Positions 3,209 through 46,970 of a stretch of DNA of 57,594 bases are shown one piece after another (position 1 is the stretch's first letter; each line of letters starts with the position of its first letter). The notes beneath the pieces were generated by a model. That model saw only the letters and a list, made by a program, of their open reading frames with translations. It did no database searches and was not told the DNA's origin. This DNA is from a virus (taxonomy: Duplodnaviria > Caudoviricetes), in the IMG/VR virus record IMGVR_UViG_3300009604_000012, positions 1 through 57,594 of that record. One strand, given 5' to 3'. Made by a program: the position numbers and the translations under genes.

Positions 3209-3526
3209 CAGTAGATATAGTGACAGTTGTAAGCGTAGGGATTTGGCCTCTAACATGCTGCGGGTGCAGGGGTTACGGGAATGCGGGTCTTGGACAGTCC
3301 CATCTCTGCGTTTGGAATCGTGTAAGTCCTTTGGATTGTGATGGTTAGCGGGATGGTCAAAAATTAAGTGCTTTGTTTACAGTAAGTTAGGTGGAGTCGA
3401 TACAGTTTGGCCTTTAGAATCAACAGGTTACAGCGGGGGCTTTTGGGGCAATCCGCTAAGTCCTTATTACTCTAAGTATTTACGGGGAGGGTTTTTGGCA
3501 GTTTGGAATGGCTTTGGTGGCTACTA

Positions 3527-3571
3527 CGCCAGTGCCAGTGCTACGCCATTGGCGTCTAGGTGGCACTGGCG
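3527..3571. other. Nested GC-rich hairpin
   Basis: CGCCAGTGCCA/TGGCACTGGCG (11 bp) enclosing ACGCCA-T-TGGCGT. Confidence 0.6.
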
Positions 3572-3694
3572 CAGCAGGGGACTTTCGGGCAGGTCACTAC
3601 GGGTCGAGGCTTTTGGTCAGCTTGACCAGTCGCACGGTCAGGTCCGTTAGCTCGACGCTGAGACGCATTAGCTCAGCGAGCAATTCAGCGCGGG

Positions 3695-3889
3695 TCATGG
3701 TCGCACCTTGGTAGCCGCGAGGTAGGCCCGGACGAGTTGGTCTTTGACATCTGGTCTGAGCGTTTGCCAGTGCAGCCATAGCCAGTCATCGGTCTGCTGC
3801 TGGTCGGACTTATCCCCAGCAGTGCGGAGGATGTTGCAAGCGAGTGCTCTTTGCACTCGGGGTTTAGCTATCATGATATCTATCTCCAC
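3695..3889 (-). CDS. Hypothetical protein
   Basis: ORF track. Stop overlaps the ATG of a short leucine-rich ORF at 3597-3698. Confidence 0.4.
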   Translation of the reverse strand: MEIDIMIAKPRVQRALACNILRTAGDKSDQQQTDDWLWLHWQTLRPDVKDQLVRAYLAATKVRP

Positions 3890-3947
3890 GGTGAGTCGGG
3901 ATTGACTCGCTATAGAGATAGACGGCTGAGGTGGCAGGGGCTGACAG

Positions 3948-4091
3948 TTAGAGCAGTCCAGCCTCGGCGGTTACATAGATGATGTAGGCAGCGAGGTGCA
4001 GCAGCCCGATAGTGGTGAGTATCTCAGCGACTGGGAAGGTTCGACGCTGGTGCAGTTCAACTGTGGTGGCTCTGTGGTCTTGGTTGGTCAT
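3948..4091 (-). CDS. Small membrane protein (47 aa)
   Basis: SD AAAGGAG before MTNQDHR...; C-terminal hydrophobic helix. Confidence 0.55.
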   Translation of the reverse strand: MTNQDHRATTVELHQRRTFPVAEILTTIGLLHLAAYIIYVTAEAGLL

Positions 4092-4174
4092 TGTCTGTCT
4101 CCTTTGTAGCTCTTGAGACGACAGTGGTCGGAAAAGGTTTTGATGGGTTACCCCCAGATGGCTTTTTGGAGAAG

Positions 4175-4486
4175 TCAATGTTGATGGGGGTTTTTGGATT
4201 TGGAATCGTCGATACTGGGTACGATGGTGCTCTGGGGGATGGAGTTGAGTAGCTCGGCGTGGGTCATCGGCTCGACCCAGACGGGGGTTCGGTCGCCAAC
4301 CCATGCATTGATGGCGTTGAACTCCAGATACTCTCGTGCCTCGTCGGGGTCCATACCATCTCGACGCATCAAGATGCCGATGGCGAGCGGGATGGAATAG
4401 ATAGCGAGGTCGGGCTGTCCGCAGCGGCGACCAATGCCAATCAGGGCATCATCGAGGTCCTCAGCCAAGAGTAGCTCTGCATCCAT
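4175..4486 (-). CDS. Conserved phage hypothetical protein, probably leaderless
   Basis: Familiar phage pattern DDALIG...DGM..DEA.EYLEFN...AWVG..TP. TGaTACACT -10 box lies 6 nt before the ATG. Confidence 0.75.
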   Translation of the reverse strand: MDAELLLAEDLDDALIGIGRRCGQPDLAIYSIPLAIGILMRRDGMDPDEAREYLEFNAINAWVGDRTPVWVEPMTHAELLNSIPQSTIVPSIDDSKSKNPHQH

Positions 4487-4890
4487 CCAGCGAGTGTATC
4501 ATTCTTTATGGGTCGACTGGAGTCAGACTGGCGTCGGGACGGACACTACTAATGATGGAGGCTCAGCCTAGCTTCGCGCATCATTCCCAACTGGATAGCT
4601 ACTCGCTGCTGGTGGGATGGTAGCCTGATGGGGCCATTCCAAAGTCATTCCAAATGATAGGGAATCTCGCTACGCCGAAACCCCGTATCAGTCTAAGTCG
4701 TTGATTCTAAAGGATAATGTGTTCGATGGGATTGATAGTCCCATCATTCTAAGTAGTTGATTCTAAAGGTTCAGGGTGTTGGAGATGGCAGTAAAGTAAT
4801 GATAGAAGGTATCCAAAGGCTGATGGTATTAAGGAATGATAACTACCTTTGTTATCAATGAGTTAGGACCGACACCCCGCTTTTCGATGG

Positions 4891-5241
4891 ACCCCCCTCC
4901 CCCTCTATAATAGAGGGGTGTAAATTCTGAGACAAAAAATGGGGTCTCAGAAAAGTGGTATAATGTGTCATGGCTCCCCTATAGTGAGTCTATAAGGTGA
5001 GCGAAAAATGATGAAACATGCACCTAACCCCAAGAGAATCAACACGTTAGTATGTGTCATGATTTCGGGTATTCTCGGCGCGATTTGACACATTTGCAAT
5101 AACTCCTTTAGAATCAGCACTTTATATGTGTCATGCAACACGATTTAGGCAAACGCGAAAAATCCATGCAACTCATTGAAAACAAAGACGTTAGCAGAAT
5201 GTTTCAAAATCGCGATTTGACCCCCATGACACATGACACAT
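4891..5241. repeat. Palindromes and ATGTGTCATG iteron-like repeats (putative pac/ori region)
   Basis: Palindrome 4900-4918; hairpin 4925-4952; ATGTGTCATG at 4963, 5052, 5126 and inverted at 5225 and 5232; CGCGATTTGAC at 5079 and 5211. Directly upstream of terS. Confidence 0.7.
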
Positions 5242-6103: not shown

Positions 6104-7774
6104 TTGGCTGACCGGATTCCCTTCGAGGAGGCTATCGCAGAGCCGATACTCCTCAAGAAACCGTGGATGGACCTGAGTGGCCCACAGAAGGTCATTCTCA
6201 AAGCGCTCTATGGCTTACCATTAACCACGGAAGAACTCGTCTGGTGGAGCATCCTGCAAGGTCCTGGCACTTATGAGCATGACCAACTGGGTTACCCAAC
6301 CACGGTGCAGCATCAGGTTCCCTACACGCCAAAGGAATATGAAGAGTGCTGGGCGATTCTCGGACGACGTAGTGGCAAGAGTCACTCATATCTGGGCTTC
6401 GTCGTGGCCTATGAAGCGCTCCTCGGGGGACACACCCGGTATATTAGCAAGAAGCAAAACTCCCGTATCTTTGTGGTCGCCCAGAAACTCGACCTCGCCC
6501 AGGCGATTATCATGGAGTTCGTGGAGCCAATCTGCTCGGCCACCCCGCTGTTGGAACGAGAAATCAAAAATGTCAACAGTGACGGGATTGTCCTTAAAAA
6601 TCGGCAGGTAATCGCACCCGCGCCCCCGCATATCAAACCCTTCCGAGGATTTGCTGTGCCCGTGGTGGCAATGGACGAAGTGGCCTTCTGGTATAAGGAC
6701 AGCGAAAGCGCCAACCCGGACTACGAAGTCGAGCGAGCGGTCTCCAAGGCCCAAGCACAGTTCCCTGACCGAAAGCGTGTCGGGGCATCGACCCCCTGGA
6801 GTAAGGAGGGATTGCTCTACGATGCGCACAGAGCAGGGACACAAGGCTCCCGCTTGGCGCATGATGACCCCCAGAAGAGTCGATTCAAGCATGCGCTTGT
6901 CGTGCATGCCCCCACACCCGCGATGCAGGTGCCATTGATCGGGATGGACCGGAACTATTTCCAAAAAGAATATGACCGGGACCCCGAAGGCTATGTCAGG
7001 GAGTTTCTCGCGAAGTTCGTGGATGCGGTCTCGGGATTGTTCACTGAGGAGCAGGTGCGAGCCGCGCAGGAAGGCCAACCCTCCTATGCACAGGGGCGGG
7101 ATGCGCTCCCCCGCGCTGACCACCCAGAAGATATCATCCCCTACTATATCGCCGCCATCGACCCGGCGTTTCGTCGGGACCGCTTTGCATTTTGCGTAGG
7201 GCATTACGAACCGGAGCGGGGATTCGTCCAAGACCATTTGCAATGGTGGGAACCCGAACAGGGCAACCCGATCAACCCCGCATTTGTATTGGATGACATC
7301 AGCCATACGCTCCTGAGATTCAAGGTGGCGATGGTCTTCAGTGACCAATATCAACTGGAATCTCTCCAACAACTGGCCTTGGACAGAGGATTCAGCATCC
7401 AGGGGATGGACTTCACCGCGAAGAGCAAAGCGAAGGTCTATGGCAATCTGTTGACGTTGTTTAGAACCGAGAAGGTAAAGTTACTCAAATGTGAGGAACA
7501 GGTCCAAGAACTGATTTCTTTGGAACGCCACAACTCCGCATTGGGGAATGTGTCGATTAGTGGGCGCTCAGGGGTACATGATGACATTGCCACCGTAGTG
7601 GCGTTGTGTGCGCGGCAGGTGATTTGGCTCATGCCGAGAACCCCGGAGGATATTGCCAAGATCAACCCCCATCGGGACCCGTCAACACATGAGAAGTGTA
7701 TGACGCAGATCATCAATAAAAAACGCCGGAAGGACATGCTTGACAGGCTTGAACGTGGTGGCTACTATTTTTAA
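6104..7774 (+). CDS. terL: Terminase large subunit
   Basis: Walker A GRRSGKS, Walker B VAMDE, motif III ASTP, nuclease AIDPA and HDD. Confidence 0.95.
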   Translation: MADRIPFEEAIAEPILLKKPWMDLSGPQKVILKALYGLPLTTEELVWWSILQGPGTYEHDQLGYPTTVQHQVPYTPKEYEECWAILGRRSGKSHSYLGFVVAYEALLGGHTRYISKKQNSRIFVVAQKLDLAQAIIMEFVEPICSATPLLEREIKNVNSDGIVLKNRQVIAPAPPHIKPFRGFAVPVVAMDEVAFWYKDSESANPDYEVERAVSKAQAQFPDRKRVGASTPWSKEGLLYDAHRAGTQGSRLAHDDPQKSRFKHALVVHAPTPAMQVPLIGMDRNYFQKEYDRDPEGYVREFLAKFVDAVSGLFTEEQVRAAQEGQPSYAQGRDALPRADHPEDIIPYYIAAIDPAFRRDRFAFCVGHYEPERGFVQDHLQWWEPEQGNPINPAFVLDDISHTLLRFKVAMVFSDQYQLESLQQLALDRGFSIQGMDFTAKSKAKVYGNLLTLFRTEKVKLLKCEEQVQELISLERHNSALGNVSISGRSGVHDDIATVVALCARQVIWLMPRTPEDIAKINPHRDPSTHEKCMTQIINKKRRKDMLDRLERGGYYF

Positions 7775-7788
7775 TTGAGGAGGTAATT

Positions 7789-7956
7789 ATGCCAGTAGTA
7801 GATGGAAAGAAATACCCCTATACCAAAGCGGGGAAGGCACAGGCATCTCGGGCGAAGAAGGGAAAGGCGTCAGGGAAGGGTGGGAAAAACAAACCCAACA
7901 GCAGTAGCATGGGTGCAGGCAACATGCGTGGTGGACAACCGAAAGGCACCAAATGA
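7789..7956 (+). CDS. Small basic Lys/Gly-rich protein (55 aa), not in ORF track
   Basis: GAGGAGGT SD; MPVVDGKKYPYTKAGKAQASRAKKGK...; ATGA overlap with the next gene. Confidence 0.8.
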   Translation: MPVVDGKKYPYTKAGKAQASRAKKGKASGKGGKNKPNSSSMGAGNMRGGQPKGTK

Positions 7957-8210
7957 ACTGGGGCCAACTCGGAGGCGCAGTGATTGGCAATATCGCGAGC
8001 ATCGTCAAGTTGGTAGAGGGTATTCGCGGGAAACGCGAGGGTGTGCAGAAGCAAAACCTTGCGGTGGATTTGTTTTTTGCCCTGATCTCTAGCCAAGAAG
8101 AGAACGAGGTCGTAGACCGTATCGAACACGCAGAGGATGAAGTGCGTGGGGTGATCGATGCCGTGGTTGCATTAGAGAACAAACTGCGGAGTTTCGGTGG
8201 AAATCCTTGA
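7953..8210 (+). CDS. Hypothetical protein
   Basis: Translationally coupled ORF with amphipathic N-terminus. Confidence 0.65.
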   Translation: MNWGQLGGAVIGNIASIVKLVEGIRGKREGVQKQNLAVDLFFALISSQEENEVVDRIEHAEDEVRGVIDAVVALENKLRSFGGNP

Positions 8211-8579: not shown

Positions 8580-10676
8580 ATGCCCAAAGAAGACCTCGCT
8601 GGCGATGTGAACGTGAAGTTCGAGGGGTGGCGAAAGGATAGACGCCCACACGAGCTTCAGTGGTTCATCAACGCCGCGCATCGTCGTGGGCAACAGACCA
8701 GCGAAGCCGAACCTGTCTGGAGACGGGTGCGCTCGGTAGATGACATCGAGGAACCGCTGAGTAAGCGGCGACCGTCGATCAATCGCCTGCAAGCCAAGCA
8801 TCGAGCACGGTTCGCGAAGTTCGCTCGGGCGCGTCCCATGCCCATCGTGGTGCCCTTTACCAGTGACCGCAAGGACCGACAGGACGCGAAAGCCTCCGAA
8901 CGTGCCTTGAATTACTACTGGGAAAAGCATGGCATGGAAACCAAATACCTCGATGCGCTGCTCTGGGCAGCGGATTGCGGGAAGAGTTTCTGGTGGGTGC
9001 ATTGGGATAATGACGCGATTGTGCCCGTGAGTGAAGAACGCGACGATGGCACGATGGGCCTCGCTGATGAACAACTTGGGGATATCCGGGTTGAAGTGGG
9101 CAATGCCTTTGAGGTGCTTGTCGCGGACCCGAAGATTTCGCGCATCTCCGACCAACCCGAAATCATGCGGGTGAAGGTGCGGGATGTCGAGGACCTACGG
9201 AAGCGCTACCCCAGCTCGGCCAAGAAAATCCACGGGGACACCACCTATCATCATTACTTTGAGTTCGAGCGGCAGATGGCAACATTGGCGACGAGACCCT
9301 TGGGGTCCTTGGCAAGTTTGTCCATGCCGGTGGGCGAGAGTGATGGCTCGAATAAAGCAGAACTCCCCAAGGCATTAGTGAAAGAACTCTTCACGGCACC
9401 GAATGCCACCCACCCCAAAGGACGGTATGTGGTGGTTATTGGGGATGTAGTGGTAAAAAAGCAGGATGAATTGCCATTTGGGTTCTTTGATTTGGAAAAC
9501 CCCTTCCCGGTGGTGGAGTTTCAGGACATGCCCCAGGTCGGGCAATTCTGGACCTCGACGTTCATTGAACAACTGATTCCGATCCAACGTGCCTATAACA
9601 ATCTCCGGGCGCAGTTGGAAGAACAGATTGACATGAACATCCACCCCAAGTGGTTGGTGCCCAAACAAGCACAGATTCCCGACACAGCATTCACCAATGC
9701 CACCGCAGAAGTGGTGGAGTGGAACTATATCCCCGGTATGCCGGAACCCCATGCTATTACGCCGGGGAATATCGCTGCCGATGCGTGGCGATTCGCGGGG
9801 ATGCTCCGTGAGGAACTCGATGATGTCTCCCAAATCCAACCCTCGATTGAGGGGAAAGTCGGTTCAGCAAAAAGCGGATTCCAAACGAACCTCCTCCAAG
9901 AAGCCTCCGACGCGGTCCACGCGCCCGATGCGCGGGGTTTTGAACTGTCCATCCAAGACGCCGCGATAAAAATAAGACGGATGATGCGCTTGGGGTATAC
10001 GTCTGAGCGCATGATGTCATGGGCCGGACGGAACTCCTCCCCGGAGGTATTCGCGTTTAGTAACGCACAGATTGATGAACATGCGTCGATTCGGGTGCAG
10101 GTCGGGTCAGCGATTGGTGGGCTGAAAGCCACACAAATCCAACAGGCCCTTGACTTGTATAGTGCCGGGTTGTTGGGTGATCCGAATGACCCCGAAGTCA
10201 AACGCAAGACTTTGGCATCGCTGGACCTGCGTGGGATGGAAGACGCGCAGGAACGGGCGAATCTGGACGAAGAACAGGCACGAGCGGAGACGATGGACAT
10301 GCTCCGTGGTGAAGCGGTCACCGTGCCGCAGTTCTATGAGAATCATGACATTCACATCGCAGCGCATACCGAGGAGCTAAAAGGTCCTGCGGCAAAGACA
10401 ATGGACCCGCAGATACGCCTCGACCTCCTCGCACATATTCTGTTGCATGTGAACTTTGTCAATCCACAGGTGGCTTTCGGCCTGACTCAGAAGTATGAAC
10501 TAACAGAGCGACTCGTACGACCGGGGTTGATCGAACCGCCGCCACCGCCTCCTCCACCGGGCGTAGGCCCACCGGGAGGGGGACCACCCGGACCAGCACC
10601 GGGACCGCCGGGTCCTCCTGGTCCACCACCAATGGGACCCCCGCCGGGACCTCCGGGACCGCCCACCGTGGGCTAA
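8580..10676 (+). CDS. Portal protein (P22-like) with Pro/Gly-rich tail
   Basis: 698 aa, between terL and scaffold. LIPIQRAYN...HPKWLVP pattern; SAKSG motif. Confidence 0.88.
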   Translation: MPKEDLAGDVNVKFEGWRKDRRPHELQWFINAAHRRGQQTSEAEPVWRRVRSVDDIEEPLSKRRPSINRLQAKHRARFAKFARARPMPIVVPFTSDRKDRQDAKASERALNYYWEKHGMETKYLDALLWAADCGKSFWWVHWDNDAIVPVSEERDDGTMGLADEQLGDIRVEVGNAFEVLVADPKISRISDQPEIMRVKVRDVEDLRKRYPSSAKKIHGDTTYHHYFEFERQMATLATRPLGSLASLSMPVGESDGSNKAELPKALVKELFTAPNATHPKGRYVVVIGDVVVKKQDELPFGFFDLENPFPVVEFQDMPQVGQFWTSTFIEQLIPIQRAYNNLRAQLEEQIDMNIHPKWLVPKQAQIPDTAFTNATAEVVEWNYIPGMPEPHAITPGNIAADAWRFAGMLREELDDVSQIQPSIEGKVGSAKSGFQTNLLQEASDAVHAPDARGFELSIQDAAIKIRRMMRLGYTSERMMSWAGRNSSPEVFAFSNAQIDEHASIRVQVGSAIGGLKATQIQQALDLYSAGLLGDPNDPEVKRKTLASLDLRGMEDAQERANLDEEQARAETMDMLRGEAVTVPQFYENHDIHIAAHTEELKGPAAKTMDPQIRLDLLAHILLHVNFVNPQVAFGLTQKYELTERLVRPGLIEPPPPPPPPGVGPPGGGPPGPAPGPPGPPGPPPMGPPPGPPGPPTVG

Positions 10677-14617: not shown

Positions 14618-17600
14618 ATGAAAAAGTTGGTAGCGAGTCTCCTGTGTGTGGGGGTCCTAGGAGTGGTGTCTGCGTCCGCGCAAGACCCTTCAGCGGGTCC
14701 CTTTACCACAGTGACCGAGATTACAGTTACTGGCATTGCCGATGTTGATTCCCTGCGTTTCGACGCAGAGAACCTCGATGTTATGCTAGCCCGAGGTGGT
14801 GCGAATAGATTGGAATTGGCAGATGGAGATTCCTTCAGACTAATCAATGGCACATTCCAATTCGGGGGCGGCGATGGCGTTGCTGTCACGGAGGATGGCG
14901 ACGGAGCGATAACCTTTACAGGGGAAGGAAATGGGAGCGACGAGAACCTGACATGGAACTATGACGACACCGCGAACACCGTGGTGATTTCCAGTAGCTC
15001 CGGCGTCACAACCCTCACCTACACTTCCATCGGGGCGACCTTCGGGGCGGCTCTATCGGTGAGTAGTGGGGTGGTAACTATCTCCGATAGCTCCGCAGGA
15101 GCGTTGGATGTAGGAGGTGGTCTGAATATCGGGACCGGGAATGTGGCCTTGATTGGTACGGATGGGCGCATAAACGGTCCCTTGAGTTCCACGATTATTG
15201 ATGATCTCAGCGGAGCGAACCTCACGACACTCAACGCAAGCAACCTCTCATCTGGCACCGTGGCTACCGCAAGATTAGGAAGTGGCACTGCGAGTTCCTC
15301 TACCTTCTTACGGGGGGATGGGTCATGGACCTCAGTTGTTGCGGGACCCGGTGGGTCTGATACCCAGGTACAGTTCAATGATGGTGGTGCTTTGGCGGGG
15401 GATTCGGGGTTTGTTTTCGATAAGGATGCGAACTCGGTGGACATCACCGGCACAGGCGCAGATGCGCTGGATGTGGGTGGTGGGTTAAACATTGGAAGCG
15501 GCAACGTGGCGCTCGTAGGGACCGACGGGAAGATCAGCGGTCCCCTCAGTTCGACCATTATCGATGACCTGAGTGGCGCGAATCTTACCTCACTCAACGC
15601 TGGGAATATCTCGTCTGGCACCCTCGCGGTAGCGCGTGGAGGCACAGGAGCAGCATCTTTAACTGATGGGGGATTATTGTTTGGGAGTGGCACTGGAGCG
15701 GTCACAGCATTGGGTGTGGCGACGAATGGACAGATTCCTATTGGCGACGGCACGACAGACCCGCAGCTTGCTACTATTTCAGGCACCTCCAACGAAATTG
15801 ACATCACTAACGGGTCAGCCTCGATCACGGTGGGGATTCCGGCGTCAGCCACGATTACCACAGCCTTGACCATCAGTGGCACAGGGGCATCGTCGTTGGA
15901 CATTGGTGGTGGATTGAATGCTGGCACGGGAGATGTCGCGTTGGTTGGAGATGATGGCAGGATCAATGGACCACTCAGCTCAACGATTATTGATGACTTG
16001 AGTGCAGCGAACCTGACTTCGATCCCCGCAGGACAACTCACCGGGTCGATATTGAATGCACGGCTACCCACCAACATCGACATAGGCGGGACCCTTGATG
16101 TCACCGGAGCGACAACATTGGATAGCACCTTGGCACTCGTAGGGGCTGTCACATTTAACGATGCCGGGGGTGATGTCGACATTCGCGCCGAAGGCGATAG
16201 CGTCACCAATCTCTTCACCCTCGATGCCTCGACAGACCGTATTGGTATTGGTGTCACAGCACCAGACAACATCCTGCATGTATTACAAACCGGTGCAGAC
16301 TGGGGGATGTTTATCGATTCCTCCAGCACCTCCTACGCTCCGGGCATTCAGCTCAGACCCAACGGCACGGCGAAAGGGTGGGTCTCCGCAACCAACGCAG
16401 GTGCGTTGTTGTTGGATGGCAACTCGATTGTCGTGGTGAATGAGGGGTCAGCTGATAAGGACTTTCGGATTGAATCAGACGACAACGCCAATATGCTCGT
16501 GGTGGATGGAGGCGATGACCGGGTAGGGATCGGCAAAGCCTCTCCGACAGTGACCTTAGATGTAAATGGTGCAACGGACATTTCTGGACATACGGCACTC
16601 GACTCGACGCTGTCCATCGGGTACGGGTCGATTGGCGACTATCAGCAAGTCTTCATCGGCGGCACCCTTGCGTCTGGCGGGGCATCCAGCCACGCCGAAG
16701 CGATGGTAGTGCAGACCGCGATCACGGGCGCGACAGGCGATACTGGGTGGTTGGCTGGGGTGAAGATTGGACCTGCTATTACAACACAAGCCTCAGAGAC
16801 GATAGTCCATGCGACGGCGCTAATTGTCAACGAACCGGAGATCACCGTTGGCAGTGGCGCGACGGTGACGACGGCGAGCACGTTGTGGATTCCAAATGTC
16901 CCCACTGAGGGGACGAACAATTACGCCTTGTTCGTAGATGACGGTGTGTCTCGATTCGACGGCAATGTGGGCATTGGTGGGGTGACGGTTCCTGGCGCAC
17001 GGTTGGAAATAGAGGACGGCGGCATCTCACACCCTGGTCCGTTGTTTATAAGTCGGCAGGATGACGACGATGTGTGGAACATGATGTTGGTCAATGACTC
17101 CTACAGCACGACGGCAGTATATGGTGTGCGGATGACCGTTGCGACAGATGGCGATTTCAATATTTATGGATCGGACAAGACGAGCAGCCCCGGCCACATC
17201 TCTTTCTTTACAGACGAAGCACGGCGAATGCAGATCGGCAGTAATGGACGGCTGGCGTACAATCTCGCCGATTTCAACAATGTGTACGGCAATCTGGAAA
17301 TCGAGGGGATCGGAGACGACATCGGGGTCAATATGTATCCCGACGACGCTGACGCGCACCAGCTGGTGTCGATGGGTGCTGGTGGCGACGGAGATGCTGC
17401 CAGACGGGGCGTGTTGAAGATCCTCGCCACCGATGACGGAACAAACAATTCGATTGCGATGGGATCTGTCGGTGGCTTAAGTTCCGATTTCAACATTTTT
17501 ACGCGCCATCCCACCACTGGTCTTGGTAGGGTCATTCTGCGTATAAAGGGCGACGGATCGACTGAAGCAACTGGGGCATTTTCAAAAGCGAGTGGGAGCT

Positions 17601-22375: not shown

Positions 22376-23700
22376 AGAAACTAGTGCTTGCCCTCATGCT
22401 ATCAATGCTCTCTCTAAATGTGCATGCTCAGATTGATCCAACGAATACCTTTTCCGTTGGGCAGATCATTACGGCAAGTGGGATGAATACAAACTTTGTG
22501 GACCTAGGAGCGTCTGCACTCAATCGTGCATCTGGAGGAAATATCACAGGGAACATTACCGTCGCGGGTGGTATCACGATTGATGGTGCTGATGTCGGTG
22601 CTTATCTGGCGACCAATGTCTATGCACAGGATAGCGGTGCGGCAGGCGACCCCTCGTTTAGTTGGGTGGGGGACACCGATAACGGGATGTTCTTGGGTGG
22701 TACAAATATTGTGGACTTCGCCACCGCAGGGTCAGCACGGATGCGAATCGCCGCAGATGGCACCGTAGCGATTAACTCCACCTCTGCGAGTGCGTTGGAT
22801 ATTGCAGGAGGATTAAACGCAGGATCGGGGAATGTCGCAATCATCAGCGCAGCAGGGAAAATCCCTGCACTGCATGGGGATTTCTTCGCGGATACAGCGG
22901 TGGCCGCGAGCTTGCTGACAGGAACGGTGGCAACCGCGAGACTGGGATCAGGCACCGCGAGTAGTTCGACCTTCCTCCGAGGTGATGGGTCATGGCAAGC
23001 GGTGACAGCGGGTGTGGCAGGCAGTGATACCCAAGTGCAATATAACAATGGTGGAGCACTGGGTGGCGATTCAGGATTCACATTTAATGACTCTACGAAT
23101 GCCGTGACCATTACCGGCACCGCCGCGAACTCCCTTGATATCGGTGGGGGACTGAACGCTGGAACCGGGAATGTTGGGGTGATTAACGCTGCCGGGAAAA
23201 TCCCTGCGATTTCATCAACCTACTTCGCCAGTCTCGCATTGGCGGCATCAAACCTCACCGGGTGTTGCCGGGTGTTGCAGATTGTGGAAGGCACCACGAC
23301 AACGGATGCGAACACTGCGAGTGGCACCTATGCGGACACAAACCTCACAGCCGCGATTACGCCAGCGAGCACGGATAACAAGATTCTTGTCATCGTGACA
23401 CAGAATGGTGTGGTGGCCTATGACGTAGGGGGAGGAGGACCGTCAGCAACCGGGATGGATCTGAAGCTCCTTCGTGATGCAACGGATATCGGCCTGATCG
23501 TCGGTGATGGGGCAAACGCCTATGATAATGAGGGGTCAAGAACGGCAGCATTTGTCGAACTCGACTCGCCAAGCTCCACGAGTGCGTTGACATACAAAAC
23601 CCAATATCGCGTAGCGGGTGGGGGAGATAGTGATAGTCGTGCTCGGGTGCAATTGAATAGTTCTGAAAGCAAAATCATCCTGATTGAAATCGGGTATTGA
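22372..23700 (+). CDS. Second tail fibre-like protein with signal peptide
   Basis: True start probably 22372 (ATGA overlap): MKKLVLALMLSMLSLNVHA|Q. NTFSVGQIITASGMNTNF head motif; shares modules with the 14618 protein. Confidence 0.8.
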   Translation: MKKLVLALMLSMLSLNVHAQIDPTNTFSVGQIITASGMNTNFVDLGASALNRASGGNITGNITVAGGITIDGADVGAYLATNVYAQDSGAAGDPSFSWVGDTDNGMFLGGTNIVDFATAGSARMRIAADGTVAINSTSASALDIAGGLNAGSGNVAIISAAGKIPALHGDFFADTAVAASLLTGTVATARLGSGTASSSTFLRGDGSWQAVTAGVAGSDTQVQYNNGGALGGDSGFTFNDSTNAVTITGTAANSLDIGGGLNAGTGNVGVINAAGKIPAISSTYFASLALAASNLTGCCRVLQIVEGTTTTDANTASGTYADTNLTAAITPASTDNKILVIVTQNGVVAYDVGGGGPSATGMDLKLLRDATDIGLIVGDGANAYDNEGSRTAAFVELDSPSSTSALTYKTQYRVAGGGDSDSRARVQLNSSESKIILIEIGY

Positions 23701-42349: not shown

Positions 42350-42621
42350 CCAACGAGTTCTCCTATTGGCACCAGTGTGGCGGTCTGTTTTTCGATGCCG
42401 ACAATTTCCATCTGATCAATCCGACTCCCAGTCTCGACCATCATGGGTCCCATGTCTTCATCGTCTGTGGCTTCAGTCAGTGCAACAAACGGAGCTTCCT
42501 TCGCGAGAGCGACTACCTCTTCCCATGATTGTGCAATGAGATGCACCTGGCCCATGGCTTGTGACCCGTTTGACATGAAGGTGAAGGTCACCTTCCAGTC
42601 AAAAGTTTTTTGAAAGTTCAT
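42346..42621 (-). CDS. Hypothetical protein
   Basis: Likely start MNFQKT, overlapping the polymerase stop (ATGA). Confidence 0.55.
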   Translation of the reverse strand: MNFQKTFDWKVTFTFMSNGSQAMGQVHLIAQSWEEVVALAKEAPFVALTEATDDEDMGPMMVETGSRIDQMEIVGIEKQTATLVPIGELVG

Positions 42622-44144
42622 ACCGTCTCCATGTCGGCCCAGTTTCTTCCGACCTTGACTTCCACATCTATCGTGAGTCCTCCCATTTGTGGGATAGGTC
42701 GCGTCATAATCTCTGTCAGTAAGGCCACTGCTGCATCGACTTTGTCTTCTGGCACATCGAGGCATTGCGAGTCATGGATATGTCCAATGGCACACATATA
42801 CGGTGCCGCCCAACTCTTCCCTAGCAAGGCAAGGTTCTCCCGTTGGAAGAGGGCATTCGAGGATTGCGGTTTGAACGCGACGACAGCGTTTGCATCCTCA
42901 CCCGGTCTGAATTGTTTCGTGCGAGTGTCCTTCGTATAGACCTGATAGTAATAATTGCGTAGTCCCCACGGGGTTTCAAGATAGCCATTGCGCCACGCTT
43001 CTTTTCGCAGGTCCGTGTGCCATGCGGCAAGATCGGGGAGCAGTTGCAGAAACCGGGCAATCTCTGCCTTCGCCTCCTTCACCGAGGGAAAGGCATCGGG
43101 ATACTGCTCATGCAACAGCTTTGCCCCCATGCCATAACTTACACCGTGGGTGACTCGTTTCTTCCGGGCATATAACAACGCATGCTTGGGGCTGTTCTTG
43201 ACCAAGCGTTTGTTCTCAGCGTTCCATTCCAAACCCAGCTCACGACAGGCAGCATAGGCATGCACTCCCTGTCGGGCAATCTCCATGTAGCTTTGTGATC
43301 CCATGAACCACCCCGACATCACCGCTTCGATAGACGAGGAATCCGCTTCAACAAACACACACCCTTCGCTGGGGATAATACATCGCCGCACATCGTCAGC
43401 ATAGGGGACATCCCCACGATGACTGACGTTCATCAGGTTGTGTTCCTGTTGCGCTAACCGAAAGGTCTCTGGGTTGTGGGTGTAGCGTCCATAGATATAC
43501 CCACGCGCATCAGGTATCCACGCATCGACATAGCGGGTCTTGGTGGTGTTGACCTTTCGGCCCTTGAGCACCAGTGCATAGATCGGATGGTCCGTGCCGT
43601 AGTGCTTGACGAGCTTCTGCAACTGGTCTTCATTCAACACCGACCGCTCTCCGGTGTCCTTGTTCAGTCCGAGTGCGTGTTGCTGGTGTGCGGCATAGTC
43701 TTTTAACTGGTCGGTGCTCAGGGGGTTAAACGGCAGACGCACATTGTATTCATTGATGCGTTCGTCTCGGGTGAGAATCTCCGCTTTGTAACAGGGGTTA
43801 AGGGGGATGCCCCCACGCCCCCCTTTCCTCGTGGTGTGCTTCGCTTTCGTAACGGGGTAGGCTCCACACCGTGAGCAAACTTTGGTGGGTTTCCTGACCG
43901 GGATCGGTTCAATGGGGAGGTCGGTCTCGGGTAGGTTCTTGAATCGCTTGGTCGGACGAATTTCCATCGGCGCATGCCGTGCCGCCCACGATTTGTAATG
44001 GTCAACCCGCCGATTGAGCTTGTGTTGTAGGTCAAGTCTCGCCTCATTATCCACACGCACCCCGTGGACCTTGCCCATTTGCCAGAGCACTGGGTCCAGA
44101 TGATGCACGTAGTCCAGATAGAAATCCCAACGGGTTCGTGCCAT
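42618..44144 (-). CDS. polA: DNA polymerase family A, polymerase domain only (C-terminal part of split gene)
   Basis: Motif A EADSSSIE, motif B KKRVTHGVSYG, motif C HIHDS; ends VKVGRNW. Confidence 0.92.
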   Translation of the reverse strand: MARTRWDFYLDYVHHLDPVLWQMGKVHGVRVDNEARLDLQHKLNRRVDHYKSWAARHAPMEIRPTKRFKNLPETDLPIEPIPVRKPTKVCSRCGAYPVTKAKHTTRKGGRGGIPLNPCYKAEILTRDERINEYNVRLPFNPLSTDQLKDYAAHQQHALGLNKDTGERSVLNEDQLQKLVKHYGTDHPIYALVLKGRKVNTTKTRYVDAWIPDARGYIYGRYTHNPETFRLAQQEHNLMNVSHRGDVPYADDVRRCIIPSEGCVFVEADSSSIEAVMSGWFMGSQSYMEIARQGVHAYAACRELGLEWNAENKRLVKNSPKHALLYARKKRVTHGVSYGMGAKLLHEQYPDAFPSVKEAKAEIARFLQLLPDLAAWHTDLRKEAWRNGYLETPWGLRNYYYQVYTKDTRTKQFRPGEDANAVVAFKPQSSNALFQRENLALLGKSWAAPYMCAIGHIHDSQCLDVPEDKVDAAVALLTEIMTRPIPQMGGLTIDVEVKVGRNWADMETV

Positions 44145-44267
44145 AGCATTCGTCTAAAAGAATCGGGCGGGAGATCGTGACGGTCCCCCCACAGTCTGAG
44201 CATAGCTGCGCGATGAGCGTGGGTTGAACTATGCCACAGACTGTGCCGCACACCATGTGCGAACCCG
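44131..44267 (-). other. Structured RNA-like element covering the polymerase start codon
   Basis: Closing stem 44131-44138/44260-44267; inner hairpin 44190-44245 (9+8 bp). Confidence 0.55.
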
Positions 44268-44274
44268 AAAGCGT

Positions 44275-44715
44275 TTACCTTATCACAGCGATGAGTGACG
44301 GGAACGGAGCAGACGCTGCGGCACCCTCAAAGCGCAACCTCCCTCGGAGGAATCGGAGTTCAATGTCTGGTCTCGCTGCATGTGTGTGTTCATCCCACAG
44401 GTAATCCTGAAACCACTTTACGTCGGTTCGTGCCGGGAGGAGCATGACGCCATGCCGTTCCGTGACACCCTTCTCTACCCACCGCGTAAGCTCTCGTCCG
44501 TATGGAGGGTTGCACCACCACCAGCCTGACCAAGTGTTGGGTCTCCATGGAAGTGAAAGTGCATCTCTGATGTAGAAACTCTGGCACTTCGCATTCTCGT
44601 TCGACGCACACACATCGAGGGTAAAGGGGAACTCGGTGTGGAGTTGATCGAACAGGTCTTGTGGGGTTCCCCAGTCCTGTCGCTTCGCTACCGGCATGTA
44701 TCCTTCTTTATCCAT
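44275..44715 (-). CDS. Phage DNA N6-adenine methyltransferase (Dam-like)
   Basis: WGTP..LF, LDVCA, WCNPPYG, LLPARTD, RGRLRF, APFPS; likely start MDKEG. Confidence 0.9.
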   Translation of the reverse strand: MDKEGYMPVAKRQDWGTPQDLFDQLHTEFPFTLDVCASNENAKCQSFYIRDALSLPWRPNTWSGWWWCNPPYGRELTRWVEKGVTERHGVMLLPARTDVKWFQDYLWDEHTHAARPDIELRFLRGRLRFEGAAASAPFPSLIAVIR

Positions 44716-45034
44716 AGGCAATCGGCTCGGTTTCTTCGAGGACCTCTTCAGCTTCTGTTCGTGCTTCGTCTTTTGCGATTTCAATCTCAGCCCGTAATCG
44801 ACTCAGGGTTTTCTCCCAGAGATTCAGGAACTCTTCTTTCCAAACCTCTGCAAAGGTATGGTTCACATGACCGGACCATGGGCAACAGACCCTTCCGGCA
44901 GCAGACTGTGCATGGATGATGGTTCGTTCGATGTATTCTTGGAATTCCTCGTGATTCCCCGGCTGCTTGGCGATGGCTAAATCCTGTTGGCACTTTCGCA
45001 AGTCCCCAAGTTTGGTGGTCATATTGGTGGTCAT
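44708..45034 (-). CDS. Hypothetical protein inside the polymerase interruption
   Basis: ATGA overlap with the UDG-exo stop; overlaps the MTase start. Confidence 0.65.
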   Translation of the reverse strand: MTTNMTTKLGDLRKCQQDLAIAKQPGNHEEFQEYIERTIIHAQSAAGRVCCPWSGHVNHTFAEVWKEEFLNLWEKTLSRLRAEIEIAKDEARTEAEEVLEETEPIAYG

Positions 45035-46143
45035 AGCTGTTGCCCTTTCAAGACACGTTCAATATGGAGGAAGTTCTCTAGTGCGGCATCCGAATCGATA
45101 CAGTTGTAGAGTGCAGGTTCTGCGAGGTTCAGATGTTTCCACGGTTGAATATGGTCAGAGCACAGTGAGGTCACGAACTCTAATCCTTTGGGCAGGTTCG
45201 GCAACCACACATGAAAGGCATTCATGCCATCGTGCAGGTCTCCGTTCACCTCAACACCAGCATCCCGCACGATAGGGATGTCGAATGCCTTGGCATTCCA
45301 TCCCACCATTGGCCTATTCACACCGAGGAGTGTGGTGATGATTGGCATCCATGGGGCTTGCCATGGCACCGACATCGCATGACCTACGCGAAATGAAAAG
45401 CTGATACGCAGGATGTCTGCGCTGGTGGATTCTCCAAGCTGTGATTCGTCTTTGTTTATTTTATAGGGGGTCTCGATGTCCCACGACAGATAGCAATCGG
45501 GTGTGCGTTCGTATTCCTGCACGAACCGCATCGCTTGGTGGGGGTGGGGGTCGAGGAGATATTTTGGAATGCGTTTGGTAAAGCCATCTCGTGCGATGCG
45601 TATCGCTTTTCTGATGTCACTAATCACTGGGCCTGTCCACTTGGCTGAACTCTTCTCTCGTTTCCGTGGAAGGAGGAAGCTCGGGTGGAAGGTGGGCACC
45701 ACGGGAATCCCCTTGGGTCCGTCGAGTATAGACCCACGGTAGCGCATGATTCCTAATTGACCAGTCAGCCGCCGCATGGGGACATTGCCCAAGGCTACGA
45801 GGGCTTTGGGGGCTAGCCTCTCAATGCTGCCATCAAGTAAGGGCCGACAATGATTGATCGCAGTGAACTCGTAGGGCGCATGTGAGAGTTTGTTCTGTGG
45901 TGGCTGGCAGTGGATGACGTTCTCCACAAAGATATCGTCTCGACTCAGCCCCGCCCGTGCGAGGAGCATACTAAGTTGCCACCCGGCGAGTCCCTGGAAA
46001 TGTTTACCAGTGGCGGCTTCATCTTTTCCCAAGGCTTCTCCCACAACCAGCACTTCCTTGGCGAAGCCTCCATCTGGTATTCCAAATCCAGTTCCCCGCT
46101 TCTCTAGTGGACACCCACGACAGAGCGGCGGTTTGGTGGTCAT
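45031..46143 (-). CDS. Family-4 uracil-DNA glycosylase fused to 3'-5' exonuclease (N-terminal part of split PolA)
   Basis: CRGC, VGEALG, CQPPQN, TFHPS; ExoI WDIET, ExoII GWNAKAFD, ExoIII YNCID. Confidence 0.9.
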   Translation of the reverse strand: MTTKPPLCRGCPLEKRGTGFGIPDGGFAKEVLVVGEALGKDEAATGKHFQGLAGWQLSMLLARAGLSRDDIFVENVIHCQPPQNKLSHAPYEFTAINHCRPLLDGSIERLAPKALVALGNVPMRRLTGQLGIMRYRGSILDGPKGIPVVPTFHPSFLLPRKREKSSAKWTGPVISDIRKAIRIARDGFTKRIPKYLLDPHPHQAMRFVQEYERTPDCYLSWDIETPYKINKDESQLGESTSADILRISFSFRVGHAMSVPWQAPWMPIITTLLGVNRPMVGWNAKAFDIPIVRDAGVEVNGDLHDGMNAFHVWLPNLPKGLEFVTSLCSDHIQPWKHLNLAEPALYNCIDSDAALENFLHIERVLKGQQL

Positions 46144-46970
46144 GCCAGTCGAGCGATAGCTGCCCGGTCTTCATCTTCGACATCGGTGGCGTTGAGATAG
46201 CGCATGGTGGTAGTGATTTGCTGATGCCCCAACAGACGCTGGATGGTGGGTAGTGAGACCTTCTCATCGAGGAGTCTCGATCCAAACTCATGGCGCAAGT
46301 CATGCCACCTGATGTCAGGGGCATCGGCTTTCTTCCGTGCTTGGTCCCACGCATACTGGTTCCACTTAAACAGTGGCTTCCGTGTACCAACCTTCGCCAA
46401 GCGTTCCTTCAATAACACACACACTCGGTCGGTCATTGGAATCTTCTGTGTGCGTTTCTGTTTTTGGATATTTGCAGGTACGGTAATGGTGCGTTTCTTG
46501 ATATCAACATGCCGTGCATGCAGTTGGCACAAGGCACCTCGGCGCAAGCCGGTATCACAGGCCAGCATGAAGAGTGCGCGTAAGGAATCACCCATGTTCG
46601 CAAGCAGGTCACGTTCCTGCTGTTCGGTCAGGCGCACATCCCGTTGGTTCAGCTCAGGTTCCAACGTCAGGCATTGGGGAAACTGAAAGGACCCATACCG
46701 CACGCTCGGTGTGAGAAATTCGGGATACTTTCGGAGCATGTGCTTCATCACCGCACGATAGCGATTGCGTGTGGCGGCTGACCCAGGCATGTGTGTGAGG
46801 TAGGCTTCAAGTGCCTCAACAGTTGGGACATCGCCAAGGTGTTCAGCGATACGTCGAAGGCGACAGACATCTGACGAGATCGACTTACGATAGACACGCA
46901 AGTAGTTCTCTGTATAGCGTTCGACAATATCCGAAAGCGTAACACTGGGAATTAGTATGTTTGTTGTCAT
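46140..46970 (-). CDS. Tyrosine recombinase/integrase
   Basis: TGLRRG, HDLRH, LGH, TTMRY; AGGAGG SD before MTTNIL. Confidence 0.92.
   Translation of the reverse strand: MTTNILIPSVTLSDIVERYTENYLRVYRKSISSDVCRLRRIAEHLGDVPTVEALEAYLTHMPGSAATRNRYRAVMKHMLRKYPEFLTPSVRYGSFQFPQCLTLEPELNQRDVRLTEQQERDLLANMGDSLRALFMLACDTGLRRGALCQLHARHVDIKKRTITVPANIQKQKRTQKIPMTDRVCVLLKERLAKVGTRKPLFKWNQYAWDQARKKADAPDIRWHDLRHEFGSRLLDEKVSLPTIQRLLGHQQITTTMRYLNATDVEDEDRAAIARLA

Follow-up and report, generated by a model that had tools for sequence, protein, structure and literature searches.

The DNA examined here, which we call the window, is the whole 57,594-nt virus record IMGVR_UViG_3300009604_000012 (Duplodnaviria; Caudoviricetes); it carries a completeness rating of 100% and is a complete 57.6-kb marine phage genome. 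Its minus strand holds a replication module in which a family A DNA polymerase (PolA) is spread over two genes, one for a uracil-DNA glycosylase (UDG) joined to a 3'-5' exonuclease and one for the polymerase domain, with other genes in the gap between them. The order on that strand, 5' to 3', is tyrosine integrase, UDG-exonuclease, an open reading frame (ORF) of 108 amino acids (aa), methyltransferase, a 130-nt spacer, and polymerase, with the following coordinates.

46140..46970, minus strand: tyrosine integrase gene (PF00589, 91.5 bits; phrog_1)
45031..46143, minus strand: putative subunit 1, family-4 UDG domain plus DEDDy 3'-5' exonuclease, 370 aa (PF03167)
45012..45035, no strand assigned: 12-nt exact tandem duplication (repeat search, seed 7)
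44708..45034, minus strand: 108-aa ORF, cargo gene 1
44275..44715, minus strand: predicted orphan Dam-like N6-adenine DNA methyltransferase, 146 aa, cargo gene 2 (PF05869, phrog_111, PADLOC oMTase)
44145..44274, minus strand: non-coding spacer of 130 nt, upstream of the polymerase ATG
44163..44268, minus strand: conserved hairpin element, 106 nt
42618..44144, minus strand: putative subunit 2, family A polymerase domain with its own ATG, 508 aa (PF00476)

The initial annotation read this arrangement as a single gene broken by a 904-nt insert, and its description of the two ends is accurate. The exonuclease ORF finishes in Q-L-stop (stop codon 45033..45031), and the polymerase ORF begins with MARTR followed by W (44144..42618). 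A script deleting 44130..45033 reproduces the in-frame junction expected from removal of 904 nt; as that length had been picked by the reader, an in-frame outcome is at chance level. What does go beyond chance is that the last exonuclease residue and the sixth polymerase residue fall in adjacent columns of single-chain homologues. Alignment with these uninterrupted proteins shows no residue missing at the junction and five extra residues only, at the N terminus of the polymerase. An intein or split intein was rejected, since adjacent columns and five extra residues leave no room for one; neither half has a Pfam match to a Hint or LAGLIDADG domain. From the exonuclease stop to the polymerase ATG there are 886 nt (44145..45030), and 760 of the 890 nt in 44145..45034 are coding. 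A stop lies 9 nt 5' of the polymerase ATG in the polymerase frame, the open frame measuring 511 aa against the 508 aa of the protein.

Both halves have the makings of working enzymes. In subunit 1, the UDG domain spans residues ~6 to 180, scoring 77.6 bits to PF03167 against a gathering score of 24.3 and matching PDB 1l9g/1vk2 at ~5e-25 and 1ui0 at 2.3e-20. The GE..G and HPS motifs and four Cys align with the family-4 UDGs of Thermotoga and Thermus, and histidine H153 is invariant in an alignment of 20 exonuclease-half sequences; the score to the NCBIfam model TIGR00758 is below cut-off, at 95.8 versus 125.3 bits. DEDDy exonucleases are marked by the motifs ExoI (DxE), ExoII (N...D) and ExoIII (Y...D). 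By sequence, subunit 1 has the full DEDDy 3'-5' set, with D222, E224, N283, D288, Y346 and D350 invariant in the same 20 sequences, and its C terminus lies 20 residues past the ExoIII aspartate. The Pfam exonuclease model PF01612 has no match in subunit 1; positions 481 to 780 of phrog_17, annotated "DNA polymerase," cover the exonuclease region, and positions 839 to 1235 cover the polymerase half.

The polymerase half scores 106.6 bits to PF00476 (DNA_pol_A; gathering score 34.3), with residues 125 to 504 corresponding to profile positions 17 to 381 of 381, and matches the Taq large fragment at 1e-22. Family A polymerases are defined by motifs A (D..E), B (K..YG) and C (HD), and all three are present, with D268, E273, K329, G338, H457 and D458 invariant in 29 sequences. 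Polymerase residues ~88 to 118 (43790-43880) form a C-x2-C...H...C insert that is not found in the Taq and Klenow matches; C90, C93 and C118 are invariant and H103 nearly so, and this is probably a zinc ribbon typical of this group of UDG-exonuclease-polymerase proteins (UDG-PolAs).

The ratio of nonsynonymous to synonymous substitution rates (dN/dS) was computed between the window and loci from a metagenome scan. For the polymerase it is 0.055 between the window and locus L003 (97% identical in polymerase), and between loci L009 and L010 it is 0.079 for the polymerase and 0.057 for the exonuclease; against L004, synonymous sites are saturated. Both halves are under strong purifying selection. 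These values bear on the view that the polymerase gene is broken and decaying, with the phage relying on the host enzyme, a view suggested by the interruption itself and by the lack of any other polymerase among the 66 ORFs of the window. It is very improbable: dN/dS is 0.055 to 0.079 in both halves, catalytic residues are invariant, close relatives show no frameshifts or lost catalytic residues, and the split arrangement persists in relatives down to ~39 to 44% polymerase identity. The selection data exclude a pseudogene.

The cut is old and shared. Searching proteins of 279 to 889 aa with the polymerase half gave 80 matches, which were sorted by blastp against the window. Half of them (40/80) are stand-alone polymerase halves, 39 starting no more than 2 residues from the N terminus of the window protein and one (P0024) 22 residues later; their own Met at the start is conserved in 38 of the 40. 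A further 29 are fused UDG-exonuclease-polymerase proteins with at least 280 extra N-terminal residues, four have 86 to 192 extra residues, and seven were left out of the tree, namely fragments P0071, P0073, P0075, P0076 and P0077 and the distant P0079 and P0080. Above 44% identity every match is stand-alone, and fused forms occur only at 44% or less. Fused relatives at 32 to 44% identity align end to end across the break in the window, stand-alone polymerases begin 2 to 3 columns before the conserved W/Y of the fused forms, and the exonuclease proteins of the window, L004, L009, L010 and L011 all end in one alignment column.

In a maximum-likelihood tree of the polymerase region (IQ-TREE, 74 rows), 41 split rows lie on one side of a single branch, supported by an ultrafast bootstrap (UFBoot) of 100 and an SH-aLRT of 98, and 200/200 bootstrap trees need one change only. 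Drawn with midpoint rooting, the tree has the split group nested within the fused ones. That the methyltransferase-bearing insert broke the gene, as initially proposed, does not hold: the same cut is found in 41 polymerase halves of one clade, and it is present in relatives with no insert or with unrelated ones. The initial annotation had itself counted homologues that are always split as evidence against its proposal, and within this clade they always are.

Wider searches bear on the distribution of the two forms. A HMMER search of 1.84 billion representatives returned 232 proteins at E<=1e-30; among the best 150 of these 232, stand-alone halves at the window junction are P0030, P0032, P0035, P0036, P0041, P0156, P0159, P0195 and P0254, and many are fused forms. 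With the exonuclease half, at least 26 stand-alone UDG-exonuclease proteins were retrieved (338 to 404 aa, 43 to 88% identity), and several come from contigs equal in length to ones with polymerase halves, which suggests that the contigs are the same. By tblastn the phage collection contains distant relatives only, none of them reaching 60% identity, and no cultured phage of the split clade. A scan of viral contigs gave no match with a single protein and one fused relative only with an alignment, and the scan of genome contigs gave no match.

The cut was located in a structure of the fused relative P0038 that AlphaFold2 predicted from 28 aligned fused proteins (predicted local distance difference test, pLDDT, 90.4; predicted template modeling score, pTM, 0.85). 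There, a helix bearing ExoIII (338-362) is followed by a three-residue turn (363-365) and another helix (366-374). The last exonuclease residue of the window corresponds to P0038 residue 365 and polymerase W6 to residue 366. According to the model, the fission falls in this short inter-helix turn at the boundary of the exonuclease and polymerase domains, and the five extra N-terminal residues of the polymerase would be a new loose end.

The metagenome scan yielded 48 loci. With five proteins of the window as tblastn queries, both halves were found in 32 of them (L002 and L012 being one contig). The gene is cut at the window's site in L004, L007, L009, L010 and L011 of these 32, and also in L008, where the exonuclease remnant is too short for tblastn and the cut was shown separately. 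All six relatives at 47 to 82% identity with a visible junction share the site, and in all six, as in the window, the exonuclease lies 5' of the polymerase on the same strand. What lies between the halves in these loci is as follows.

L010: 7-nt overlap
L008: 15 nt with GGAG
L004: 122 nt, with a 40-aa CxxC...CxxC (zinc-ribbon) ORF
L009 and L011: 192 nt, with a 70-aa ORF (dN/dS of 0.13 between the two)
L007: 3.1 kb, with some ten small ORFs on the same strand

The cargo proteins of these loci have no blastp kinship to one another or to the cargo of the window. Loci L008 and L010 also provide what there is to suggest that ribosome bypass, frameshifting or readthrough yields a fused protein, as the halves in L008 are in the same frame, one TAA and five codons apart, and those in L010 overlap by 7 nt. 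The window has 886 nt between the halves, with two genes and stops in every frame (7, 10 and 4), and L007 has 3.1 kb; the longest ribosome bypass known to us is the 50 nt of T4 gene 60. We regard such an event as vanishingly improbable.

Of the other loci with both halves, 21 rows (20 contigs) have exonuclease and polymerase fused. In L034, L035, L042 and L049 (28 to 32% identity) there is a second cut site, just before the Cys/His insert of the polymerase, with gaps of 0.7 to 1.4 kb of small ORFs, and stand-alone proteins starting at this second site occur among the representatives, for example, P0205, P0223 and P0225. L049 has, in addition, an intein-like insert in the polymerase near motif B. 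In the distant relative L036 (5700-9200) the cut lies between UDG and exonuclease, and the gap holds a gene for a D12-class N6-adenine methyltransferase, so that here, too, a methyltransferase occupies a polymerase fission site. The fused relative L022 has a LAGLIDADG intein (6950-7990) inside the ExoIII motif, ~20 residues upstream of the window's cut; it was considered as a marker of that cut and rejected, as it sits within ExoIII. In the distant relative L047 the polymerase match continues in another frame past an in-frame stop (8700-8735), which is either a further split within the polymerase domain or an assembly frameshift.

The initial annotation was right that the cargo of the window consists of a hypothetical ORF and a Dam-like methyltransferase. 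Searches of Pfam, PHROG, PADLOC, NCBIfam and the phage collection with the 108-aa ORF gave no match, and its Atlas scores (<=0.84) are at chance level. Its C-terminal 39 aa are 82% identical in L003, with a dN/dS of 0.36 over 39 codons. The 12-nt duplication spans the exonuclease stop and the start of this ORF, giving it two in-frame ATGs, and is perhaps a trace left when the ORF was inserted.

For the methyltransferase, ATG 44715 is the most likely start, rather than TTG 44784, because the PADLOC orphan methyltransferase model aligns from residue 30 of the long form. It scores 71 bits to PF05869 (gathering score 28.1) and 1.5e-43 to phrog_111, and it matches the PADLOC oMTase model PDLC03726 at 1.7e-29 over model positions 6 to 138 of 140. 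Its translation has an NPPY motif, and it matches 1169 phage records at up to 45% identity; the score to the equivalog model TIGR01712 is below cut-off, at 63.5 versus 97.05 bits. Model coverage and NPPY mark it as a complete orphan enzyme, as far as sequence can tell, and it probably protects phage DNA from host restriction, a role suggested by its family.

Downstream of it, the hairpin element of the spacer is 91.5% identical to L003 positions 126-228, where it lies directly 3' of the stop of the 108-aa ORF homologue. The element folds into a long hairpin (-60.2 kcal/mol for a 161-nt stretch; z -2.09). The 40 predicted hairpin pairs show no compensatory changes between the two sequences, and the element has no second copy in the window and no Rfam match. 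Possible roles are those of a terminator, of a site of processing or of a boundary for recombination.

Comparison with close relatives shows the methyltransferase to be a recent gain or loss within a gap that already existed, because it is lacking in L003 and in one contig of X19. L003 keeps the 108-aa ORF, followed by the 106-nt element and a different, 79-aa ORF, and its hairpin element stands ~320 nt from the polymerase start. In X19, an independent marine run, one contig joins 44268 to 44715 with 10 other letters between, skipping the 446-nt methyltransferase; this is the arrangement of L003, and run X15 has the arrangement of the window. Homologous methyltransferases occur at other places in the fused relatives L002/L012, L015 and L019.

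This polymorphism is pertinent to the idea that the neighboring tyrosine recombinase excises the insert as a DNA cassette, restoring a fused gene in some genomes. The integrase is indeed directly upstream, as initially reported, and the 446-nt presence or absence of the methyltransferase is clean. No direct or inverted repeats flank the 904 nt, however (seed 7), the sole repeat being the 12-nt tandem duplication at one end, and none of the contigs of four sequencing runs skips the whole 904 nt, with the limit that contigs cannot prove absence; a search for sequencing runs with this phage gave no RNA run. The integrase also lies directly 5' of the exonuclease in L004, L009, L010 and L011, whatever the gap contains, and even after precise excision the halves would still be two ORFs with a stop and a start of their own, the situation in L010 and L008. 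Restoration of the gene by excision is thus highly improbable.

A similar case can be made concerning rejoining at the RNA level, by which the 904 nt would be an unrecognized group I or group II self-splicing intron carrying the cargo ORFs. Introns are common in phage polymerase genes, according to PMC10580990. The initial annotation pointed to one register with a U before the insert and a terminal G, and a structured 106-nt element is present. Rfam, searched over 43900-45300 on both strands at E<=10, returns only four chance-level rows of eukaryotic long noncoding RNA and small nucleolar RNA, and the whole window has no Rfam match at the gathering score. Just 130 nt of the gap are non-coding, none of them at the 5' side. 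Polymerase halves have their own conserved Met, gap length and content vary among relatives, down to 15 nt and a 7-nt overlap, all 41 clade members are split, and the hairpin of L003 lies ~320 nt from its polymerase start and not at a fixed 3' boundary. An intron is accordingly very unlikely, and the suggestion of rejoining by splicing, like that by an intein or by excision, is not borne out.

The data show that the halves are two cistrons under purifying selection, that the cut is old, shared and at a structurally permissive place, and that the cargo varies. The explanation that we favor, with a probability of about 0.8, is an old gene fission that produced a two-subunit polymerase, the gap being used as a cargo slot; the two-subunit enzyme was among the options first raised, and the shared old cut, the selection on both halves and the retained catalytic motifs support it. 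A single-chain UDG-PolA gene would have been cut once, long ago, into two genes. One would supply a family-4 UDG with a 3'-5' proofreading exonuclease and the other a polymerase translated from its own ATG, and the two products would most likely dock non-covalently and so rebuild the three-domain architecture of the fused enzymes, with no rejoining at the DNA, RNA or protein level. After the cut, the gap would have become a tolerated landing place for small accessory genes, lineage by lineage, and that of the window now holds the 108-aa ORF and the orphan Dam-like methyltransferase. Reassembly is proposed because gene adjacency and order are kept, because PMC10201439 states that the stability of PolAs depends on the exonuclease domain and that UDG is packed between exonuclease and polymerase, and because of a cyanophage precedent.

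Several points weigh against this explanation. The tree is unrooted, and a single fission rests on the nesting of the split clade among fused forms in sequence comparisons. The evidence that the 108-aa ORF is a real gene is thin. No Shine-Dalgarno-like motif precedes the polymerase ATG of the window; about half of the 44 window genes examined, the exonuclease included, have none, and such motifs do precede the polymerase start in L008, L009, L011 and L003. We infer that the polymerase half initiates at its own ATG.

The products of the two genes might also remain unassociated, the polymerase half working without proofreading and the UDG-exonuclease acting as a free-standing repair nuclease. 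In favor of this, the halves come from separate cistrons, with as much as 3.1 kb between them in L007. We nevertheless consider it unlikely, given that gene order and strand are constant in the window and in all six junction-visible relatives and that the confident single-chain model puts the cut in a short loop joining two packed helices. Furthermore, PolAs are described as structurally needing the exonuclease domain, with UDG sandwiched between exonuclease and polymerase (PMC10201439).

Fission of the gene into two subunits may also have been other than neutral. The gap would then be a selected cargo slot in a replication operon, its cargo co-expressed with the replisome and acting on it, which we think rather unlikely. 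If true, the methyltransferase of the window and the zinc-ribbon and other small proteins of its relatives might, for instance, mark or methylate newly made DNA at the fork or influence proofreading. With two subunits the phage could also adjust UDG and proofreading relative to synthesis, and the distant cuts (before the Cys/His insert, and between UDG and exonuclease with a D12 methyltransferase) would be repeated use of the same principle. The near-identical variants that have or lack the methyltransferase form a natural pair on which cargo function could be tested.

The rest of the locus and genome is organized as follows. The plus strand encodes a P22-like portal, an SU10-type adaptor and an endolysin. 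The integrase ORF as listed extends to GTG 47111; its start is likely ATG 46970, which has AGGAGG just 5'. An ATGA overlap at 46140-46143 joins the integrase stop to the exonuclease ATG, by which the two genes are predicted to be translationally coupled; the exonuclease stop and the ATG of the 108-aa ORF overlap likewise, and the last 8 nt of the 108-aa ORF overlap the methyltransferase gene, counted from its ATG. An integrase inside a replication operon is an unusual location, and its pairing with the exonuclease is kept in four relatives. A scan of the minus strand of the region for sigma-70 promoters and terminators gave no match. Elsewhere, 11 copies of a 14-nt motif (GTTGATTCTAAAGG and close variants) are present where 3.4 would be expected (3411-5118, 39207 and 54970), five of them concentrated in the gene-poor 3.4 to 5.1 kb; the motif is a candidate phage promoter or regulatory repeat. 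A 75-nt direct repeat of 76% identity (15254-15328 and 22921-22995) lies in two large ORFs of the structural module, which suggests a protein motif or domain common to both.

Exonuclease-polymerase fission is now seen in another PolA lineage, in which the proofreading subunit also bears a UDG, the split clade is deep, and the cut is a hotspot of gene gain and loss. It would be a mistake to annotate split genes of this kind as pseudogenes, as genes with introns or as "exonuclease-less" polymerases, and the natural cut site is a permissive point for engineering split PolA enzymes. A literature search gave no description of a split UDG-PolA in the main texts that could be searched; UDG-PolAs appear there as single chains only, and the word "split" does not occur in PMC13697223.

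The closest mechanistic counterpart is the S-SBP1-like T7-like cyanophage PolA, whose exonuclease-polymerase fission, with predicted reassembly, was described as the first in 2023; the termini of its halves are predicted to be solvent exposed, and reassembly is proposed (Czernecki et al. 2023, PMC10201439). As in the window, the family A polymerase of the S-SBP1/S-TIP37 type is divided at the exonuclease-polymerase boundary between two genes on one strand that have their own stop or start (PMC10201439, PMC12695635). The differences are that the exonuclease subunit of the window bears a family-4 UDG and its polymerase half a Cys/His insert, that the cyanophage genes are adjacent and overlapping whereas gaps in the window clade range from a 7-nt overlap to 3.1 kb with changing cargo, and that the split clade of the window is deep, with polymerase identity down to ~39 to 44%. 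The window enzyme does not belong to the T7-like PolA cluster, which has no UDG and a thioredoxin-binding-domain region: its exonuclease subunit bears a UDG, and the nearest fused relatives are UDG-PolAs. Judged on sequence, the window enzyme would work like the S-SBP1 split PolA and is not a member of that family.

Single-chain UDG-PolAs (N4-like cluster 17, SPO1, SP-10 and SP-15/YerA41/phiLo) have the same UDG-exonuclease-polymerase order (PMC10201439, PMC13697223), and the UDG-PolA structure PDB 9qhs is matched at 4.6e-7. They differ in being one polypeptide of 800 to 1300 aa, compared with 370 plus 508 aa in the window. N4-like UDGs have lost the GE..G, HPS and Cys set, according to PMC10201439, and the window UDG retains all of these. 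PolA is likewise encoded in two ORFs, with a small unknown ORF between, in the OM43 phages MEP401 and MEP402, an arrangement kept in related metagenomic genomes, and the authors of that work also raised the possibility of an intron; there, in contrast to the window, the cut lies inside the polymerase domain (exonuclease plus N-terminal polymerase, then C-terminal polymerase), and there is no UDG (PMC10580990). Finally, the methyltransferase resembles orphan phage Dam-like methyltransferases, such as "dam" of Staphylococcus phage 80, in being small, in having NPPY and in having no partner restriction gene, and it differs from them in sitting between the halves of a split polymerase.

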